Of a DNA stretch of 64,000 nucleotides, positions 9,467 through 43,344 are shown one piece after another. The stretch covers positions 8,389 through 72,388 of the forward strand of contig NZ_JBCNNP010000018.1 of NCBI RefSeq assembly GCF_039594315.1, read 5' to 3'. The first letter of the stretch is position 1. Each line of letters opens with the position of its first letter. Below the pieces are notes generated by a model that searched no databases, was not told the DNA's origin, and worked only from the letters and a program-made list of their open reading frames with translations. The position numbers and the translations under genes are program-made. Source of the DNA: Pantoea sp. (GTDB lineage Bacteria; Pseudomonadota; Gammaproteobacteria; Enterobacterales; Enterobacteriaceae).

Positions 9467-10477
9467 TTATTGCTTGTTGCCCAGCGTCGCCACCATCACG
9501 GCTTTAATGGTGTGCATACGGTTTTCTGCCTGGTCAAACACAATACTGTGAGCCGATTCAAACACCTCATTGCTCACTTCCATGCCATCCTGCAAACCGT
9601 ACTGTTCGGCCATTTGGCGGCCTAAGGTGGTTTGGTCATCATGGAAGGCCGGTAAACAGTGCAGGAATTTCACCTGCGGATTGCCGGTCAAGGCCAGCAT
9701 CGCGCTGTTCACCTGATACGGACGCAGCAGGGCGATGCGCTCTTCCCATACCGATTTGGCTTCACCCATCGAAACCCACACATCAGTGTAGATGAAGTCG
9801 GCACCTTGCACGCCTTCAGCGATATCTTCGGTCAAGGTAATTTTGCCGCCGGTTTGCTGGGCTGCGAGGCGGCACTGTTCGACTAAATCACCTTCCGGCC
9901 AGCAGCCTTTTGGCGCCACTAAACGCAGGTCCAATCCGACCAATGCGGCGGCTTCCAGCATGCTGTTGCCCATGTTGTTACGCGCATCGCCAACATACAC
10001 CAACGTCATTTGATTCAAGGTTTTGCCTGGCAGATGTTCCTGCATCGTCAGCAGATCGGCTAACAGCTGAGTGGGATGAAACTCGGTGGTTAAGCCGTTC
10101 CACACCGGCACGCCAGCGAATTCCGCTAAGGTTTCCACTAATTCCTGGCCATAACCGCGATATTGAATGCCGTCATACATACGTCCCAACACGCGCGCGG
10201 TGTCTTTCATCGACTCTTTATGGCCGATTTGGCTACCGCTTGGGCCGAGATAGGTAACGTTAGCGCCCTGATCGTAAGCGGCAACTTCGAAAGAGCATCG
10301 AGTACGAGTCGAGTCTTTTTCGAAGATGAGCGCGATGTTTTTGCCTTTCAGGTACTGCGTCTCGGCGGCATTTTTCTTAGCGTGTTTTAATTCACCGGCC
10401 AAACTCAGCAGTGAATCGATTTCTGCGGGGGTGAAATCCAGTAATCTCAGGAAATGTCTTTGATACAGCTGACTCAT
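9467..10477 (-). CDS. argI: Ornithine carbamoyltransferase
   Basis: 336-aa ORF with the STRTR, HPTQ and HCLP motifs. Position next to pyrBI matches argI synteny. Confidence 0.95.
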
Positions 10478-11122: not shown

Positions 11123-11884
11123 ATGAATTACGCTCCGCTATTAGAACCCATTTACGCGTTCCTGCATTGCCGCACGCCGCAAGCGTGGATCGATGAAGCG
11201 CGCAAGCCAGAAAACCTCACGCTGTTGCTAACCGATCACATGGTGTGCGAGTTAAAAGCCGCGCAAACTGCCGTGTTCATCATCCGCAAATATGTGGCGG
11301 ATAAACCGAGTGGCGATGCCATTCTGGCGTGGCTCAAGCCGTACGAAGACTTTATTTATCGCGATGAGCCGGATAATAACTTCATCAACGCGCATAAGAA
11401 TCTGACCAAAAGCATCATTGTGCGCAACGAATTGCCGTGGGCGGATGATTTGGTTGAGATGATGGTGCTGCTGATTAAAGAAGAGCTGCATCATTTCTAT
11501 CAGGTTTGGGAAATCATGCAGTCGCGCGGTTTGCCGTACCGCAAAATCACCGCCAGCCGCTACGCCAAAGGCTTGATTCGTGAAATTCGCACTTACGAAC
11601 CGGAAGCGCTGGTGGATAAGTTGATCTGCGGTGCTTACATCGAAGCGCGATCCTGTGAACGTTTTGCTAGCCTGGCGCCGTATCTGGATGAGCAGTTGGA
11701 GAAATTCTACATTTCGCTGCTGCGTTCGGAAGCCCGGCATTATCAGGATTACCTGAAGCTGGCAGCACAGATTTCACCAACGGATATTGCGCCACGTGTG
11801 CGAGCCTTTGGCGAAGCCGAAGCGCGGTTGATTAGCGAAGCGGATGGTGAATTGCGTTTTCACAGCGGCGTGCCGGTTATTTAG
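11123..11884 (+). CDS. miaE: tRNA-(ms2io6A)-hydroxylase (non-heme diiron)
   Basis: ORF from MNYAPLLEPIYAFLHCRTP.. with ELKAAQ, EELHHF and EARH diiron-ligand motifs. Position near argI matches Salmonella miaE. I take the start at the ATG at 11123, not the ORF-track start at 11069. Confidence 0.85.
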   Translation: MNYAPLLEPIYAFLHCRTPQAWIDEARKPENLTLLLTDHMVCELKAAQTAVFIIRKYVADKPSGDAILAWLKPYEDFIYRDEPDNNFINAHKNLTKSIIVRNELPWADDLVEMMVLLIKEELHHFYQVWEIMQSRGLPYRKITASRYAKGLIREIRTYEPEALVDKLICGAYIEARSCERFASLAPYLDEQLEKFYISLLRSEARHYQDYLKLAAQISPTDIAPRVRAFGEAEARLISEADGELRFHSGVPVI

Positions 11885-11895
11885 ATTGGTGCGCG

Positions 11896-12020
11896 CTGTC
11901 CCTCATCCTAACCTTCTCCCGCAAGCGGGAGAAGGGATGAATAGGTGGCGTTCAGTTTTACATCTATGCTCGATCTGTCCCTTCGCCCACGCGTGGGAGA
12001 GGGCTAGGGTGAGGGGAAGC
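11896..12020. repeat. Two REP-like palindromic units (family A variants)
   Basis: CTGTCCCTCATCCTAACCTTCTCCCGCAAGCGGGAGAAGGGA and CTGTCCCTTCGCCCACGCGTGGGAGAGGGCTAGGGTGAGGGGAAGCG, in the miaE / GNAT intergenic region. Confidence 0.8.
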
Positions 12021-12031
12021 GACCTCAATCA

Positions 12032-12538
12032 TCACAACATCTTCAGCATCCGCACTTCGCAATCCACGTGTCCAGTACAACCCATCGCGCCTTCGATATG
12101 TTCAAATCCCAACGACTCATACAACTTAATCGCGCGCGTCAGGCTGCCGGTGGTTTCCAAATAGCAGCGGCGAAAGCCTTGCTGACGCGCATAATCCATC
12201 GCGCGCAGCGCCAGATCGCGTGCCAGACCTAAGCCGCGCACTTGCGGCAGGAAATACATCTTCTGCAACTCGCAAATATCCGCTGCGCTACAGGCCAGTG
12301 GCGCAACGCCGCCGCCGCCAACTACCACGCCGTCATGTTCAACAATCCAATAGGCGCTGTTGGTTTCGCTGTACAGTTCGAACAGGCGATCCAGATTGGG
12401 ATCGGAAACGGTATAGCCTTTATCCGCCGTCAGACCAAATTCGGCTGATACATCGCGGATCACTTTGGCAATCAAGGGATTATCAGCGGCTACAATCGGG
12501 CGAACTTGCAGATTAAGTGGCGTGACGGTGCTCATCAT
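12032..12538 (-). CDS. yjgM: GNAT family N-acetyltransferase (YjgM-like)
   Basis: 168-aa ORF with the acetyl-CoA binding motif ([18 protein letters not shown]). Synteny downstream of valS. Confidence 0.8.
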
Positions 12539-25074: not shown

Positions 25075-26352
25075 TTAATGCAATTGTTGAATCAATCCTG
25101 GCAATTGTGAAAGCAAATACAAAATCAGCCCAATTGTCCCGCCGACCAAGGTGCCGTTGATGCGGATAAACTGCAAATCGCGGCCAATATTCAATTCAAT
25201 CTGTTGCGACATATCGCGCGCATCCCAGCTCTTCACTGTATCGCTGATATGACGCGTCAGGAACGCTGCAAACTCCGGCGCCACGCTGCGTGCGGCATCT
25301 TCCAGATGCTGATTCATTGAGGCACGCAGCGCTTCATCGGCGGCCAGCGTCTCACCCAACCACAATGCCGCCAACCGCACGCGCTCCTGCACGCGTGAAT
25401 CTTCGCTGTTCAAATCCTCTTTCAACCAACTGCGCATGTCCTGCCACAGTTCGCCAATATAGCGATTGAACGACTCATCTTCTTTAAGCCAGTTCTTGAT
25501 GACTTCGGCACGTTCAGCCATTTCGGGATCGCTTTTCAGACGATCAATCAGCCGATGCACTGCGCGATCAAAGCCCAAACGCAGCTCATGTCCCTGATCC
25601 AGCGCCACCTGATCGAGAATCGAATCTACGGCGTTTGCCACTAAATCGGCGCTGTGCTCGCCCAGCCATTCGGTCGGCAGCATTTTGGCTTTGATCGGAT
25701 GTTCACGCTTCAGCCAGCGCACAATCTGCGTGGCGATAAACTCGCGCGTGCCGGGTTTGTGCAGCAGACGCAGCAACTGTTGCACCGCCGCATCCAGCAA
25801 CTCCTGATGGCGATTGTTTTTGGTTAAGCTGTCCAGCAACAACGCGCTGGATTGGGTGAGATCGACTTTATCCAGCGCGCGATGCACCGCGCGGCGCAGG
25901 AAACGCTGGATACGTTGATCGTCGGTGAGATCGAGAAAGCCGCGCATCACCTGCAACAAATGGCGGCCAATGCGATCGGCGTTGCCCGGCGTGTTCAGCC
26001 ACTGCGCCAGCATTTGCGACGGATCGTGGCGGCGAATCAGCGCCAGCAGCGAATCGGTATCGAGGAATTTCTCCTGCACGAAGCGGCCCAAATTCTCGCC
26101 GATGCGATCTTTATTGCGCGGGATAATGGCGGTGTGACGCGAGATAAACGGCACCGGCACACGGCGAAACAGCGCTACCACCGCGAACCAATCAGCGAGC
26201 GCTCCGACCATCGCCGCTTCGGCAATTGCCTTGACGCCGAGCACCCAGAAGTTGGGTGGCAGAAACAGAGTGATGACAAAAATCGCTGCCGCAATCAGCA
26301 GCAGCGACAGCGCTAAACGCTTACTGCGTTTGAGTTGTTGAAATTTATCCAT
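25075..26352 (-). CDS. DUF445 family membrane protein (YjiN-like)
   Basis: 425-aa ORF with N-terminal and C-terminal TM segments flanking a long helical region. The family assignment is from memory of this architecture. Confidence 0.6.
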
Positions 26353-26375: not shown

Positions 26376-27878
26376 TTAACGACGACGACCGCCGAGTAAA
26401 CTGCCTAAAACACCGCGAATAATTTGATTAGTCACCTGACGTGCCGCGCTTTTTGCCACGCTCTGCACCACGCCGTCGCGCTTGCCGCCGCGCGGGCCGG
26501 TGGTGCCAAACAGAATATCCTTCAGCCCGCCAAGAATGCCGTCATCGACTTCGACATTGTTGCCTTTGGCTTCCGGCGCGTTGGCTTGCTGCGTGGTGGC
26601 CTGCACACCTTTTTGCAGCATCTCAAACGCCGATTCGCGATCCACTTCGGTGTCGTATTTACCGTACAGCGGCGAGTTGTTGATTAGGCCATTGCGCTCA
26701 TCTTGCGTCACCGGTCCCATGCGCGAGCCGGGCGCGATCACTATCGCCCGTTGCACCATTGAAGGACTGCCTTTTTCATCAAGGAACGATATCAGCGCTT
26801 CGCCAGTTCCGAGCGCCTGAATCGCCTCGACGGTATCAAACGCCGGATTAGCGCGCATAGTTTCTGCCGCGCTTTTTACCGCTTTTTGATCTTTCGGCGT
26901 GAAAGCGCGCAGCGCGTGTTGCACGCGATTACCGAGCTGGCCGAGCACGTTTTCAGGAATATCGGACGGATTCTGCGTAACAAAGTAGACGCCGACGCCT
27001 TTGGAGCGAATCAGGCGAATCACCTGTTCCACCTTTTCCAGCAACACCGGCGGCGCATCGGTAAACAGCAGATGCGCTTCATCGAAGAAGAACACCATCT
27101 TCGGCTTATCCAGATCGCCAGCTTCCGGTAAGTGTTCATACAGCTCAGCCAGCAGCCACAGCAGGCTAGTGGCGTAGAGTTTCGGCATTTGGTAGAGCTT
27201 TTCCGCCGACAGGATATTAATGAAACCTTTACCATTGCTGTCGCAGCGCATCCAATCGCGAATATCCAGCATCGGTTCGCCAAAGAAGTGCTCGGCACCT
27301 TGCTGCTCCAGCGCCAGTAAACCGCGTTGAATCGCACCAACCGACGCGCTGTTGATATTGCCGTACTGCGTCTGGAAACCTTTAGCGTTGTCGCCGATGT
27401 ATTGCGTCATGGCGCGCAGATCTTTGAAATCCAGCAGCAACAAACCTTGGTCATCGGCGATGCGGAAGATGATTTGCAGCACGCCGGATTGCACTTCATT
27501 GAGGTTGAGCAGGCGCGCTAGCAGCAGCGGACCGAGATCGGACACCGTGGCACGCACCGGATGGCCTTGCTGACCAAAAATATCCCACACCATCACCGGA
27601 TTTTTTTGCGCCTGCCAATCGGTGACGCCGATTTTAGCCAGCCGCGCCAACAGCTTTTCGGAACCTTCGCCAGCGGCGGAAACGCCGGTGAGATCGCCTT
27701 TCACATCCGCCATAAACACCGGTACGCCGATATCCGAGAAGGATTCCGCCAACTTTTGCAGCGTCACGGTTTTACCGGTGCCGGTCGCGCCGGTGATCAA
27801 ACCGTGGCGGTTGGCCATGTTGGAGAGCAGGTGCAATTGAACGTCGGGCGTTTGGGCAATCAGTAACGGGGTGCTCAT
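26376..27878 (-). CDS. yjgR: HerA-like P-loop ATPase, DUF853 (YjgR)
   Basis: 500-aa ORF with Walker A (GATGTGKT), Walker B (VFFFDEAH) and a basic C-terminal tail. Confidence 0.88.
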
Positions 27879-38963: not shown

Positions 38964-39048
38964 GCCGAAGTGGCGAAATCGGTAGACGCAGTTGATTCAA
39001 AATCAACCGTAGAGATACGTGCCGGTTCGAGTCCGGCCTTCGGCACCA
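38964..39048 (+). tRNA. leuX: tRNA-Leu (anticodon CAA)
   Basis: GCCGAAGTGGCGAAATCGGTAGACGCAGTTGATTCAAAATCAACCGTAGAGATACGTGCCGGTTCGAGTCCGGCCTTCGGCACCA. Type II tRNA with a long variable arm and a CAA anticodon loop. Essentially the E. coli leuX sequence as I recall it, with encoded CCA. Confidence 0.97.
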
Positions 39049-39340
39049 TCGATTGATGCAAAAAATCAAGTCGCTTACGAGCGGCTTTTTTTTTGCCTAA
39101 ATTTCGTCACTAACCTTCACCTCAAACTAACCTGTTTGAGAAATCTTCGCTGATTACTCCTCATGTCACTTTTTAAAGCTACGTGAAGCACATGTTCACT
39201 AGAAATGCAGGTCAAACATTTCATTAAATAAAATGTGATGCAGAGTGCAAACCTCAGATCAAAACCATAAATTAACTGTGTGTTATTTGTTTTTGTGTAT
39301 ACCTTTGTCGTAAGGGATGAAAAACATAAGGACGAGTAAA

Positions 39341-39826
39341 ATGCCAATTCCAGCAAATCTCTGGCTTAAAGATGACGGTGGTGCCGATATTCGTGGCTCC
39401 GTTGATGTGCAAAATCGCGAAGGTAGTATCGAAGTCACCGGTTTTTCTCATAATGTAAGGCTGCCAACCGATCCACAAACCGGTAAGCCGACTGGCACAC
39501 GTAAGCATGCGCCGATAATTATTCAAAAAGAGTTTGATGCATCTTCTCCTTATCTTTATAAGGCTGTTTCTACTGGGCAAAATTTAACTTCAGCAGAATT
39601 CAAGTGGTATCATATTAATGATGCTGGACAGGAAGTAGAATATTTCAATATTTTAATAGAAAGCGTGAAAATCATTGGTGTTTCACCAGTAATGCACGAT
39701 ACCAAAGATCCTGAAAAAGAGAAGCACAACCATCTGGAATGCGTTGAACTCGCCTACGAAAAAATAACGTGGAAATATTGTGACGGCAATATTATGTTCT
39801 CTGATAGTTGGAATGAGAGACCATAA
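39341..39826 (+). CDS. hcp: Type VI secretion tube protein Hcp (TssD), orphan copy
   Basis: MPIPANLWLKDDGGADIRGSVDVQNREGSIEV..SSPYLYKAVSTGQNL.SAEFKWYHINDAGQEVEYFN..HNHLE.VEL.YEKITWKY.DGNI..SDSWNE is the classic enterobacterial Hcp sequence pattern. The ATG at 39341 has an AAGGA SD. Confidence 0.93.
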   Translation: MPIPANLWLKDDGGADIRGSVDVQNREGSIEVTGFSHNVRLPTDPQTGKPTGTRKHAPIIIQKEFDASSPYLYKAVSTGQNLTSAEFKWYHINDAGQEVEYFNILIESVKIIGVSPVMHDTKDPEKEKHNHLECVELAYEKITWKYCDGNIMFSDSWNERP

Positions 39827-39829
39827 TTC

Positions 39830-40246
39830 ATGCGTTATCCTACTATGGCTGCATCTCCGCAGCCTCCATTTGATATTATCTCTTTCACTCCTCCTGGTGT
39901 TTCAATCGTCAATAATATGATGTTGGCTCGTTTGCACAAAGGACCGTCTGCCATGACATATGCATGGTTTTACAGTCAGGTAAAAGGCCATGGTCCCTGG
40001 GATTATAAAAATCAAAATGGCAGGCAGTATGCTAATTTTGGTAATTTTAATTATGGCGCTGTTGGACATGCGGCTGGTATAACCGAGTCAGTGCTATTGA
40101 GGGCTGCTGGGTGGGCGCAAAGTCGCGCTGGAACAAGCAATATTGAGTTTGGAAGTTGGTATGGTTTCAGCCCTTATGGTGACGATCCTGAAGACCAATA
40201 TTGGATAAGGGCAGGGATTGATTATGCTAAGCGCGCTGGATTTTAA
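39830..40246 (+). CDS. Small standalone polymorphic-toxin-like protein (Ntox44-like); candidate Hcp-dependent T6SS effector
   Basis: 138-aa ORF starting 3 nt after the hcp stop. Motif string GPWDYK(55-60) .. FGNFNYGAVG(70-79) .. LLRAAGWAQ(89-97) .. PYGDDPEDQ(115-123) matches my memory of 'polymorphic toxin type 44' C-terminal domains. No signal peptide. Confidence 0.6.
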   Translation: MRYPTMAASPQPPFDIISFTPPGVSIVNNMMLARLHKGPSAMTYAWFYSQVKGHGPWDYKNQNGRQYANFGNFNYGAVGHAAGITESVLLRAAGWAQSRAGTSNIEFGSWYGFSPYGDDPEDQYWIRAGIDYAKRAGF

Positions 40247-40652
40247 AAGAGTTTATTTTTTTGGTATCGTTTTATTCGGATTGATCGCGTATGGTATTTA
40301 TCTATTATTGAAAGTATCTCCACTCGAGCAGACAATAGTCTATAAGGAGAAAGTGAATAATCTGGCTAATCTATATGTTACAGAAGCCAATGCTGGTGCG
40401 ACAACGGGTTTTTCGTACAGATTTTATTTATACGATGGAAGTAAAAGTGATGAGGACTTTAAACGAAGCTTGATGGATACGGCTTCGCCATTTCTCATTA
40501 CTTCTGATAGTAAAGCATTAGATAAAATAAAAAACGGAGTGATTTATTTAAATATTAAAGGGCGTATTTATTCATTTAATAACAACCCTGCATATAGATA
40601 CAATGATTCTATTTATAAAATACCTGCCGTTATTACTGCCGCACCATACTGA
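40224..40652 (+). CDS. Candidate cognate immunity protein, N-terminally membrane-anchored
   Basis: The ATG at 40224 lies inside the toxin gene 3' end, a 23-nt overlap (or the TTG at 40218). It has a K/R-flanked TM helix (VYFFGIVLFGLIAYGIYLLL) followed by a domain of about 110 aa. No family assignment. Confidence 0.55.
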   Translation: MLSALDFKRVYFFGIVLFGLIAYGIYLLLKVSPLEQTIVYKEKVNNLANLYVTEANAGATTGFSYRFYLYDGSKSDEDFKRSLMDTASPFLITSDSKALDKIKNGVIYLNIKGRIYSFNNNPAYRYNDSIYKIPAVITAAPY

Positions 40653-40742
40653 GGAAGTTTCAAGCTTGTTATTTTTATGGTCTGAAGCGATGTGTCTAGT
40701 GGGTTTTTATAATTCCTTCTTTTAGCTGTTATATATTATTCT

Positions 40743-42755
40743 TTACTGTTTTGAATAAAAGTCTGGCCAAGCATCATAATATGGATAACTAACTTTAACT
40801 TCACCCACATTAAAATCATATGTTAATTTATTGACACTTTTCCTAAATATACTTATAGATGGAAGTGACTCTAGATATCCTGTCAATTTATTTATGGTTA
40901 TTTTTCCTTCGCAAAATTTATATTTTTCCAATTCAGCTGAATTTTCCTTGCGTAAGTTTTCGTCATTAATTACTCCTTTGATGCGTTTAAAAAATCTATC
41001 TAAAGATAGTTGATCTACCACATAGCAGCCATTTGCAAAATATTTCCCACCTAAAGGTGATGTGGTGACTATTATTTTAATCACTCCTTCATGCTTCCAT
41101 GTATAGGGTAAGTTAAAGGCTTTTCTTATTTCTACAAGATGAGTGAGGTAATGAGCAGAATATCTGTTGATTTGTTCCGTGAAAGACCGTTTTTTTCTGC
41201 TAAATTCTTTGATATGAAAAGTATCACCTAAAATATCGTAAGCATTTTGATAATATTTATTGAAGAAAATTGGTTGACCATTAGATTTGAGCTCTACGAA
41301 GACTATGTAATTATCTATGATTATTACGCAATCACATTCATAATCGTTGTGAGACGATAAATTTAAAGCTGTTATTCCAGATGAATTTACAAGACTAATG
41401 AATTCATCTTCATGAAACCTTCCCTTTATTGATGTGCTAATTTTCTTAGCATTGAATAATGATAGTAATGAACGACTAGATGAGCTAGTAGAAAGAAGAG
41501 CTGGCATTATAAAAAAACCATCATTACATGGGATTAATGGACAGTCATTAATATCCAATGATTCCTTAGTGAAAGTGAAATAATCTACTAATAGTTTTGA
41601 ACATTGGTGAGATAGAGATTCTTTTTCGAAAAACAAAATCCAATCTTCCCTACTTTTTCTGATCAGCCAGTTAGATTGATTCGACAGTTTATTTTTTCTT
41701 TTTAATCTTTTTTTATGTTCTTTTATTGCAAGTGAAACCAAAGCTTCATAAGCATGCACCCAATCGAATATACTAATCCCACCATAGCTTTCAAACATAT
41801 TTTCAGGGCTTATGTTTTCAAAGCTGGTCAATAGCATTGCATGGTAAATATCATTTTTAGTTAAATATGATGGAGCCCATTTCCTTATCTCACTAATAAA
41901 GCTTGGTTTTTTAGATATGTAGTTATTTAAATATTCATAAGTTTCCATGCTTTTCATCATTACTCTTGACCTAGAAACTTCATAGTCGCGGTAAAGATTA
42001 TCTTCACAAACTTCTATTTTGAGTTCATTTTCATTTATCAACGCTAATTCTGCATTACATAGCCTGAAAAAATCAGTGGTTCTAGATAATGAATCATAGC
42101 GATTCCAACTTTCATAGACATCTAACATTTTAACGAAATCAGGCATGGAAATTTTTTCGTCAATATCCATTTTTTTCTCTGATTTTGAAAATGCTAATGA
42201 GAAAATTTTCCCAGTGTAATGAACTATTTCATCGATCGCTCTGCTTAGCGTTTTGATATCATGGTGTGTAAAGTCATCTCCTCGAGGGATATTTGATGGG
42301 TAAAAAACAAAAGGTAATATTTTTTTTAATTTTTTATGAGGGGTTCTGCCGAGTATGGCAATATAAATTGAAATAAAGTTTTCGGAAAAAAGAGATATTA
42401 TAAAAAGTTCTTTTTCTGATATTCCATTTCCCCATATATTATTTATCTTTAAATGTTCAAAGAATTGGTTATATAAATGACACATTTTTTTGTATTGATT
42501 ATTTTCTTTAAGTATTATTTCATTATCACTTGGGAATTTTTCCATTAACAATCTAAAATATGGTGTCATTTTTTCATTAAGTTTTTCAACACTGAGTGAT
42601 GAATTTCTTTTGTAATAGATGCCTGAAATTCTAATGATATTTAGTGCGTCATTTACATTTGCATTGTCATTTTTTAGATAAGAGATGAATTTATTCTTAA
42701 AAAGGATAGGGTCTTTTGCTAACTTAAGTATATATGCTGAATCATATAATTTCAT
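40743..42755 (-). CDS. Orphan 670-aa protein with C-terminal PD-(D/E)xK nuclease-like core; function unknown (candidate defence protein)
   Basis: Uninterrupted 2-kb ORF in very AT-rich DNA. Residues 445-490, GRFHEDEFISLVNSSGITALNLSSHNDYECDCVIIIDNYIVFVELK, give E449-E451, D475 and E488-x-K490 in the canonical spacing. The N-terminal ~430 aa are unrecognisable to me. Confidence 0.75.
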   Translation of the reverse strand: MKLYDSAYILKLAKDPILFKNKFISYLKNDNANVNDALNIIRISGIYYKRNSSLSVEKLNEKMTPYFRLLMEKFPSDNEIILKENNQYKKMCHLYNQFFEHLKINNIWGNGISEKELFIISLFSENFISIYIAILGRTPHKKLKKILPFVFYPSNIPRGDDFTHHDIKTLSRAIDEIVHYTGKIFSLAFSKSEKKMDIDEKISMPDFVKMLDVYESWNRYDSLSRTTDFFRLCNAELALINENELKIEVCEDNLYRDYEVSRSRVMMKSMETYEYLNNYISKKPSFISEIRKWAPSYLTKNDIYHAMLLTSFENISPENMFESYGGISIFDWVHAYEALVSLAIKEHKKRLKRKNKLSNQSNWLIRKSREDWILFFEKESLSHQCSKLLVDYFTFTKESLDINDCPLIPCNDGFFIMPALLSTSSSSRSLLSLFNAKKISTSIKGRFHEDEFISLVNSSGITALNLSSHNDYECDCVIIIDNYIVFVELKSNGQPIFFNKYYQNAYDILGDTFHIKEFSRKKRSFTEQINRYSAHYLTHLVEIRKAFNLPYTWKHEGVIKIIVTTSPLGGKYFANGCYVVDQLSLDRFFKRIKGVINDENLRKENSAELEKYKFCEGKITINKLTGYLESLPSISIFRKSVNKLTYDFNVGEVKVSYPYYDAWPDFYSKQ

Positions 42756-43344
42756 CTTTCTCTATCCTTGAGTTATTATGTTGATTTTTAATGATGGTAT
42801 ATATTTACATATTTAATAGCTAACAGCTAGAAACGCACAACCTCTACGCTTTCTTAACCAGAACCGAACCGGGATCGTTGAGCGTGCCTGTTGCCAATAA
42901 ATCGTTACGTGTGTTTAAAGTCGCAATGGATATTTCCAGAAGTCTGCGCAATGCGAGTAGTAGAAGGAAGCGAATAACAGCTTTAAACAATGACTTTCCA
43001 TTCTGCTGCCAAAACCAAGGAAAACATGTTCTTTAGCAGAAGAGGAAATTTTGCGGGGGTCTCAGCCGCTTTGCAGCGGGTCAGGACACTTTACCGTCAT
43101 GGACGAACCTGTAATCAGGAAGTGGGATGCGATTTCGTTGCCAAAATCCCTGTAACCATCCGAGCTAACAATGCTACGCGGTATATTTAGTGTTTGCAAT
43201 TAGCGGCTGCAAACGAACTAATTGTTCAAAGCTGATCCACATCAATCCAGGCGGCATTTCCCCATTAACCAAGACCTCGCCTTTAAGATCCTGTTAAGAA
43301 CTCTTCGTATAATAGCGCCCAACGATTTCAACCAAGAGTTCATC

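Follow-up and report, generated by a model that had tools for sequence, protein, structure and literature searches.

A 64-kb stretch of Pantoea sp. DNA (the window, along which all positions are counted) carries a low-GC cassette of three genes: an orphan type VI secretion system (T6SS) hcp gene, a gene for a free-standing Ntox44 toxin, and a gene for its putative membrane-anchored immunity protein. We conclude that the cassette was acquired horizontally and most likely encodes an Hcp-carried cargo effector together with its immunity protein. That it is a mobile orphan T6SS cargo module, with its own Hcp as carrier and a toxin acting in the periplasm of the target cell, seems to us reasonably probable. 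The window locus itself is ordinary, and its interest lies in a question about the family. Is Ntox44, which is annotated in databases as a predicted ribonuclease (RNase) following a Pfam prediction, really directed at RNA? In nearly all relatives examined the immunity protein is predicted to face the periplasm, which suggests that the Ntox44 family attacks the cell envelope. We see roughly even chances for the broader proposition that Ntox44 is not primarily an RNase family, and that it comprises envelope enzymes with a fold absent from the PDB and a universal, extracytoplasmic, tethered immunity partner that includes DUF5412. The three genes are as follows.

39341..39826, forward strand: orphan hcp (tssD) gene, 161 aa, 18.2 kDa, the presumed carrier of the toxin (PF05638, TIGR03344).
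39830..40246, forward strand: gene for the free-standing Ntox44 toxin, 138 aa, 15.3 kDa, isoelectric point 8.9, without a signal peptide.
40224..40652, forward strand: presumed cognate immunity gene, 142 aa, overlapping the toxin gene by 23 nt.

A sequence-only reading of this DNA had proposed a canonical hcp gene, a toxin gene 3 nt further on, a 142-aa open reading frame (ORF) overlapping the toxin gene by 23 nt, and no T6SS core genes nearby, and all of this held up. The Hcp protein matches PF05638 over residues 1-160 (E = 5e-33, 114.5 bits, cut-off 23.5) and TIGR03344 (TssD) over its full length (1.5e-44, 151.8 bits, cut-off 58.9), in both cases far above threshold. The hcp stop codon ends at 39826 and the toxin ATG lies at 39830, leaving the gap of 3 nt. 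The immunity ORF was listed from a TTG at 40218 (144 aa); the family alignment backs the ATG at 40224 (MLSAL...). The short gap and the overlap indicate that the three genes are transcribed together and translationally coupled. The whole window gave zero matches in tblastn searches with 11 core proteins of an annotated E. coli T6SS cluster (TssC, TssK, TssL, TagL, TssH, VgrG, PAAR, TssM, TssA, TssF and TssG), and the label 'orphan' is correct for that reason. We rejected an E. coli counterpart of the cassette: the Hcp genes alone align (65-67% DNA identity) with zero toxin matches, and the best match is an unrelated orphan hcp.

Does the window Hcp carry the window toxin? The main argument that it does is that the genes form a compact mobile unit in which hcp is strongly constrained. 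A scan of one genome per species yielded 80 loci, among which the order hcp-toxin-immunity was found in all 42 enterobacterial ones, spread over more than 10 genera (including Pantoea, Erwinia, Enterobacter, Cedecea, Klebsiella, Raoultella, Scandinavium, Rahnella and Hafnia, and Salmonella diarizonae). In these 42 loci hcp lies directly upstream of the toxin gene (it is split or partial in a few), the junction is a gap of 3-4 nt or an overlap of 4 nt, and an immunity homologue always overlaps the toxin 3' end. The insertion sites vary: tRNA-Leu, tRNA-Gly, tRNA-Thr, tRNA-Ser, tRNA-Met, the transfer-messenger RNA gene, or no tRNA at all. No T6SS core gene was found within 10 kb of any enterobacterial cassette, where OmpA-like domains gave the only matches. 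Compared with the nearest Pantoea copy, protein identity is 96% for Hcp, 91% for the toxin and 60% for the immunity protein, at about 80% identity on the DNA level. The conserved upstream hcp thus supports the view, already put forward from the sequence, that the gene order fits an Hcp cargo effector with its immunity protein.

Some of these loci have features of their own. Extra orphan immunity copies lie near the main cassette in four of them (L009:5752-6042, L011:11031-11426, L031:8857-9267 and L043:2947-3342), one with a toxin fragment beside it (L011:10901-11053); together these resemble the orphan-module arrays of polymorphic toxin loci. Salmonella enterica subsp. diarizonae (L037) has two hcp genes about 2 kb apart, at 9516-9998 and 11786-12277, of which the first heads the Ntox44 cassette and the second may head another hcp-effector module. 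A metagenomic representative of 117 aa (P0310) consists of an Hcp N-terminus (MAIPAYLWIKDDGGADIKGAVDVQNREGSIEV) fused to the C-terminal half of Ntox44; a deletion spanning the junction of hcp and toxin gene in a cassette of this kind seems to have produced it. An enterobacterial-type hcp-Ntox44-immunity cassette whose toxin is 78% identical to that of the window occurs in a record titled Chryseobacterium sp. 18061 (L004); this contig may be contaminated or mislabelled.

The sequence-only reading had proposed the Ntox44 domain on the basis of a string of motifs, and Pfam agrees: the toxin ORF matches PF15607 (E = 8e-18, 65.1 bits, gathering score 24), the only domain found in it, and the strings GPWDYK, FGNFNYGAVG, LLRAAGWAQ and PYGDDPEDQ are all present exactly as quoted. 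Zhang et al. (2012) defined Ntox44 by an all-alpha fold and by three motifs, DxK, GNxxxG and DxxxD. The window toxin has all three, as D58-Y-K60, G71-N-F-N-Y-G76 and D118-D-P-E-D122.

39998..40009, forward strand: WDYK, the DxK motif (D58, K60); K60 is invariant and D58 nearly invariant in toxin alignment A1.
40040..40057, forward strand: GNFNYG, the GNxxxG motif (G71-G76); N72 and G76 are invariant in alignments A1 and A3.
40181..40195, forward strand: DDPED, the DxxxD acidic cluster (D118, D119, D122; alignment A1).

In alignment A3 (123 sequences) the D and the K that correspond to the DxK motif are both invariant. Invariant in A1 are also Q97 and the cluster D118, D119, P120, D122 and Q123, and there is no conserved Cys, His or Ser, a pattern that suggests carboxylate or metal chemistry. 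Judged by this conservation, the acidic cluster is likely a catalytic or metal-binding site. The AlphaFold2 (AF2) model of the toxin is all-alpha, with six helices and no strands (pLDDT 88.9). In Foldseek comparisons with the PDB and BFVD this model had no match at E below 0.8, and phmmer and profile searches of PDB sequences gave zero matches, so that a known fold or enzyme identity was rejected. Invariant D, K, N and Q residues and a DDPxD cluster on a modelled all-alpha fold unseen in the PDB suggest an enzyme. A reading of the toxin-immunity pair as a defence system was also rejected, PADLOC giving no match for either protein.

The peak 19-mer hydropathy of the toxin is 0.98, that is, it has no hydrophobic leader, and at 15.3 kDa it would fit the lumen of Hcp; PAAR, VgrG, Rhs, receptor-binding and translocation domains are all lacking from it. 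It also has an N-terminal extension that sets Hcp-linked forms apart.

39830..39889, forward strand: the toxin's N-terminal extension, residues 1 to about 20 (consensus of about 18 aa, MRYPxxAxxPxPPYDIxSF).

The enterobacterial loci align over toxin residues 1-138. The toxins of Pseudomonas loci without hcp mostly align only from residue 17-21 on (a few from residues 1-6), so most of them lack the extension. From this difference the extension would be specific to Hcp-linked forms, and it is a candidate Hcp-loading segment.

Being free-standing, which the sequence-only reading had thought unusual, is common among close relatives: of the best 120 clusters of homologues, 115 do not exceed 160 aa, and they are found in Pantoea, Erwinia, Enterobacter, Serratia, Pseudomonas and others. 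In the wider family, where the Ntox44 profile matches 3,181 representative clusters at 50% identity, the domain stands at the C-terminus of longer proteins. Among 123 representatives scanned, 13 carry Rhs and one each PAAR, DUF4280 and LysM; others have a Sec signal peptide, or an N-terminal Ntox44 domain followed by an RTX-related tail. The idea that Ntox44 normally tips large Rhs- or CdiA-type toxins is therefore right as far as Rhs goes, and no CdiA-Ntox44 fusion was seen among the 123. The delivery contexts of Ntox44 include the T6SS (Rhs, PAAR and Hcp-linked forms), Sec, probably the type I and reportedly the type VII secretion system.

The immunity protein has no Pfam or NCBIfam family match (Pfam, E <= 1). 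Two of its segments matter here.

40251..40310, forward strand: signal-anchor (transmembrane) segment, residues 10-29, with K8 and R9 before it and K30 after it.
40383..40424, forward strand: EANAGATTGFSYRF, conserved core motif [DE]x(A/C/G)GATTxF, residues 54-67 (immunity alignment A2).

The sequence-only reading had described an N-terminal transmembrane helix flanked by K and R residues, and had argued from the resulting topology for a periplasmic target. The helix is there: residues 10-28 (VYFFGIVLFGLIAYGIYLL) are the most hydrophobic 19-mer of the protein (Kyte-Doolittle 2.22), and the AF2 model (pLDDT 84.7) shows residues 4-30 as a helix, after which comes a domain rich in beta structure; the model had zero fold matches in the PDB, and the search of PDB sequences for a known relative was likewise negative. 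The topology argument holds across the family. A profile hidden Markov model (HMM) built from the 29 closest homologues of the window protein matches the ORF that overlaps the toxin 3' end in 79 of the 80 loci, and also in loci L084-L088; homologues likewise follow P. aeruginosa Ntox44 proteins of 330 aa and 490 aa and the toxin of a P. agglomerans megaplasmid. Among 88 immunity homologues, 81 have an N-terminal 19-mer whose hydropathy is 1.6 or more, and in 80 the N-flank is more positive than the C-flank. By the positive-inside rule this indicates an N-in/C-out signal anchor that places the beta domain on the non-cytoplasmic side, and for the window protein we likewise predict from sequence that the N-terminus is inside and the beta domain in the periplasm. 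The N-terminus of the immunity profile also aligns to the signal anchor of MacA, a periplasmic adaptor protein, in a weak, compositional match (E = 0.05). In the conserved core, G58, A59, T61, S64, Y65 and R66 are invariant in A2.

Pointers to an extracytoplasmic target recur in other kinds of Ntox44 toxin. A 1,644-aa Rhs-Ntox44 protein (L089) is followed by a clear member of the immunity family (9e-20 with the A4 HMM), a 1,400-aa one (L104) by a homologue with a lipoprotein-type signal, hence a predicted lipoprotein, and a 420-aa Ntox44 protein with a Sec signal (L103) by an anchored immunity homologue. The Ntox44 proteins of Bacillus and Metabacillus start with Sec signal peptides, and in Metabacillus a DUF5412 protein (PF17428, 1.2e-15) comes next. 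Two Clostridium plasmid proteins have Ntox44 fused to two to four PG_binding_1 domains; one of them also has an Rv2525c glycoside-hydrolase-like domain, and downstream of the other comes a lipobox-bearing (VSGC) DUF5412 protein. Scleractinian corals have acquired Ntox44 with a secretion signal by horizontal transfer (PMC8162421); a target at the cell surface sits more easily with such a protein, which is secreted and has no domain for import.

Two of the more distant loci have noteworthy neighbours. Just upstream of the genes for the Sec-signal Ntox44 protein and its immunity homologue, at L103:637-2599, lie genes for a SMODS/AGS-C cyclase and a SLATT protein; this pair resembles a cyclic-oligonucleotide-based antiphage signalling system (CBASS), and the region is flanked by transposases. 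In P. aeruginosa (L088:3346-7399) a 330-aa Ntox44 protein with an unannotated N-terminal region of 200 aa is followed by a 142-aa immunity gene, and the pair adjoins genes for a pore-forming colicin domain and for a microcin-type immunity protein in a region with secretin-, TcpQ- and PilO-like genes. Here the Ntox44 domain seems to be used in the manner of a pyocin.

The motif [DE]x(A/C/G)GATTxF is common to the window immunity family and to the Rhs-linked, Sec-linked and DUF5412 partners of Ntox44. A chain of pairwise matches also runs through them, from L089 to L104 (1.5e-9), from L104 to L103 (3.4e-10) and from L103 to a DUF5412 protein of C. botulinum (3.8e-9), these E-values coming from tiny search spaces; the intermediate from L103 reaches 15 bits (E = 0.022) against PF17428 itself. 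As judged by these similarities, the immunity protein may belong to a broad, previously unnamed family that is continuous with DUF5412 and that partners Ntox44 in both Gram-negative and Gram-positive bacteria.

These observations can be assembled into a mechanism. Hcp is said to act, in work by Silverman et al. of 2013, as chaperone and receptor of small cargo effectors that fit its lumen. The toxin (15 kDa, no signal peptide) would enter the lumen of the Hcp hexamer made from the neighbouring gene, and a T6SS whose genes lie elsewhere in the genome would fire it; T6SS loci are described as common in Pantoea and Erwinia genomes (De Maayer 2011, PMC3235180). Topology and comparative genomics suggest periplasmic action of the toxin against the target cell's envelope. 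Sister cells would be shielded by the beta domain of the immunity protein, tethered at the outer face of the inner membrane through its N-terminal signal anchor. As to chemistry, we can only speculate: peptidoglycan or a lipid-linked precursor might be the substrate, and the toxin might be a glycosidase that uses carboxylates or a phosphoesterase that depends on metal.

Several points weigh against such an Hcp-borne, envelope-directed toxin. Since there is no T6SS in the window, the linkage to hcp is the one pointer to T6SS delivery, and homologues in Pseudomonas and Burkholderia are toxin-immunity pairs without an adjacent hcp. No similarity in fold or sequence to any known enzyme or nuclease backs a specific chemistry for the toxin. 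The Dokdonella immunity homologue (L102:4367-4756) has no anchor. The DUF5412 link is transitive, made through intermediates on E-values from tiny search spaces: the window immunity protein has no Pfam match to DUF5412 (PF17428) at E <= 1, none of 25 immunity-family members matches the DUF5412 model at E <= 10, and profile-profile comparison of A4 with A5 by hhalign gives a probability of 5%. Direct DUF5412 membership of the window immunity protein was accordingly rejected on the Pfam scans. Lastly, the sequence-only reading had held the biochemistry of Ntox44 to be unresolved, which is outdated: TseR, a PAAR-Ntox44 protein of Y. pseudotuberculosis, was reported in 2025 to be a divalent-cation-dependent RNase with a preference for single-stranded RNA, and is described as toxic in HeLa cells (Wang et al. 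2025, Cell Rep 44:116074, as cited in PMC13577199); it is the only Ntox44 protein known to us with reported biochemistry.

The TseR result is one ground for supposing that the window toxin is an Hcp-carried RNase that cleaves RNA in the cytoplasm of the target cell, the anchor of the immunity protein being incidental (its domain might, for example, face the cytoplasm or intercept the toxin in passage). We consider this rather unlikely. It has in its favour the RNase annotation of the domain in Pfam, an acidic cluster that would suit a metal-dependent nuclease, and the anchorless Dokdonella homologue. The cation dependence reported for TseR fits the acidic cluster under the envelope and the RNase models alike. 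What speaks against a cytoplasmic RNase is the positive-inside pattern of 80 of the 88 immunity homologues, which predicts a periplasmic domain, together with the lipoprotein versions of the immunity protein in a Gram-positive and after an Rhs toxin, and the Gram-positive Ntox44 proteins with Sec signals or with peptidoglycan-binding and glycoside-hydrolase-like domains. The modelled toxin fold, moreover, is unlike that of any known nuclease, and Ntox44 goes unmentioned in a 2023 review of toxins that target nucleic acids. No experimental Ntox44 structure was found. Searches of a plasmid collection by tblastn for the TseR locus returned no Yersinia or Photobacterium plasmid among their matches, and no PAAR-Ntox44 fusion was met among the proteins whose gene context could be looked up.

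Delivery may be questioned as well as target. The pair could be bacteriocin-like or otherwise independent of the T6SS, with hcp a hitch-hiking or decaying bystander that has no role in delivery. This would account for the pairs without hcp in Pseudomonas, in Burkholderia and on the Pantoea megaplasmid, for the homologues that are annotated 'bacteriocin', for the 330-aa P. aeruginosa version beside a colicin-domain gene, and for the lack of T6SS core genes in the window. We nevertheless find it improbable, for hcp is kept directly upstream in all 42 enterobacterial loci, at varied insertion sites and in tight coupling; Hcp is conserved at 96% relative to the nearest relative, above the toxin; and the toxin has no signal peptide and no receptor-binding or translocation domain. 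Still more remote is the idea that horizontal transfer has left only a dead relic here, a cassette without any present function. A relic would be consistent with the AT-rich islet lying at a tRNA gene and having a second insertion next to it, and with the related loci that have a split hcp, truncated toxins or orphan immunity copies. The window cassette itself makes decay unlikely, because none of its three ORFs is broken and no invariant residue of the families is missing; protein identities of 96% (Hcp) and 91% (toxin) to the Pantoea relative, at about 80% identity in DNA, also stand against it.

The three genes of the cassette have GC contents of 0.40, 0.45 and 0.34 in order, as against 0.54-0.55 in the flanks, and GC drops from about 0.54 to 0.40 directly past a tRNA gene. 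The left border of the islet and the DNA near it are as follows.

38964..39048, forward strand: tRNA-Leu(CAA), found by ARAGORN; left border of the low-GC islet.
39068-39087: terminator-like hairpin near tRNA-Leu(CAA).
40653..43282: an insertion of its own, with GC lower still (about 0.30), outside the toxin cassette, with a 670-aa ORF inside.
40743-42755, reverse strand: the 670-aa ORF, GC 0.30, between the immunity gene and a DUF1090 gene.

In the closest Pantoea relatives (L095-L099) the DUF1090 gene follows the immunity gene directly and the 40653-43282 segment is absent, which is why we regard this segment as a separate insertion. The 670-aa ORF has weak NERD-like matches alone, at residues 466-529 (Pfam E = 0.036; PADLOC PDC-M29B 2.5e-5), and a PDB sequence search with it gave no match; it may be a candidate defence gene that shares one hotspot with the T6SS cassette, comparable to the 'genomic armories' of Leo et al. 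(2026). Around the islet no convincing attachment-site repeats were found, and promoter-like matches were no more frequent there than in shuffled sequence. One Pantoea cassette (L096), at a chromosomal site different from that of the window, bears a 75-nt stretch (L096:5140-5211) that is 91% identical to the 3' end of the window tRNA-Leu and the terminator (39027-39101); this stretch may have been left behind by integration targeted to a tRNA gene. Elsewhere the window holds chromosomal housekeeping genes (nrdD, valS, pepA, a hexosaminidase of glycoside hydrolase family 20, flhE/A/B, cheZ/B/R and fliF/G/I). It includes, on the reverse strand, a HerA/mad8-like ATPase gene (26376-27878; PADLOC mad8 1.9e-19) adjoining a gene for a DUF445 protein (25075-26352); the former is probably a housekeeping gene of the yjgR type and not a defence system.

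Three things look new here: the Hcp-linked, free-standing Ntox44 toxin as a conserved mobile unit, a cognate immunity family for Ntox44, and the conflict between the location of that family and the RNase label. No immunity partner was listed for Ntox44 by Zhang et al. (2012). Ntox44 is among the most widespread polymorphic-toxin domains, and if the envelope is indeed what it targets, a large number of annotations would have to be reconsidered, together with one mechanistic paper or more (that on TseR), and a new enzyme fold with antibacterial action would come within reach. The pairing of Ntox44 with its immunity proteins would also give DUF5412 a role. The tiny three-gene cassette is handy for the study of Hcp cargo selection, for which the candidate loading extension of about 18 residues offers a direct handle.

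How does the cassette compare with known systems? Pantoea effectors are described, in PMC3235180 and in the preprint of Leo et al. (2026; 10.64898/2026.08.01.741415), as lying mostly outside the main T6SS cluster in variable hotspots, sometimes beside an extra hcp (Pse9d) and often beside defence genes; the window islet likewise pairs the cassette with a NERD-like candidate gene. The running text of that preprint, its effector table aside, does not name Ntox44, and we found no Hcp-linked Ntox44 cassette described in it (10.64898/2026.08.01.741415).

TseR (YPK_2589), as described in citing papers, shares with the window toxin the PF15607 domain and the association with the T6SS; PAAR-Ntox44 genes exist in Klebsiella too. 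It is, however, a PAAR-fused specialised effector inside a T6SS cluster, whereas the window toxin is free-standing and lies beside an orphan hcp; and TseR is reported to be an RNase, whereas the window immunity protein is predicted to be periplasmic and would be a poor fit to a cytoplasmic target. A specialised effector of the TseR type was rejected for the window, where the protein is 138 aa long, almost all of it Ntox44, and has no PAAR. DUF5412 proteins lie directly downstream of Ntox44 in Clostridium and Metabacillus, have an N-terminal anchor or a lipobox, and share a G(A/S)TT motif with the window family; they differ in that the window immunity protein has no direct PF17428 match and in that profile-profile support is weak.

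In Salmonella SPI-6, hcp is followed by tae4, which encodes a peptidoglycan amidase of known fold, and then by tai4, which encodes its periplasmic immunity protein. The window has the same order of hcp, small effector and immunity gene, with an effector of lumen size and an immunity protein that is predicted to be periplasmic. Unlike Tae4, the window toxin has no similarity to an amidase or to a solved structure, and its module is an orphan far from any T6SS cluster. A Tae4/Tai4-like amidase pair (NlpC/P60-like, with Cys and His) was rejected, the toxin having no conserved Cys or His and no fold match. Colicin M with Cmi and pesticin with Pim are bacteriocins that act in the periplasm and are countered by periplasmic immunity proteins, Cmi being anchored by an N-terminal transmembrane helix. 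They differ from the window pair in sequence and fold, to which they show no similarity, and in their route of delivery, but their logic is the one proposed here: a soluble toxin that acts on the envelope, and an immunity protein tethered at the outer face of the inner membrane.

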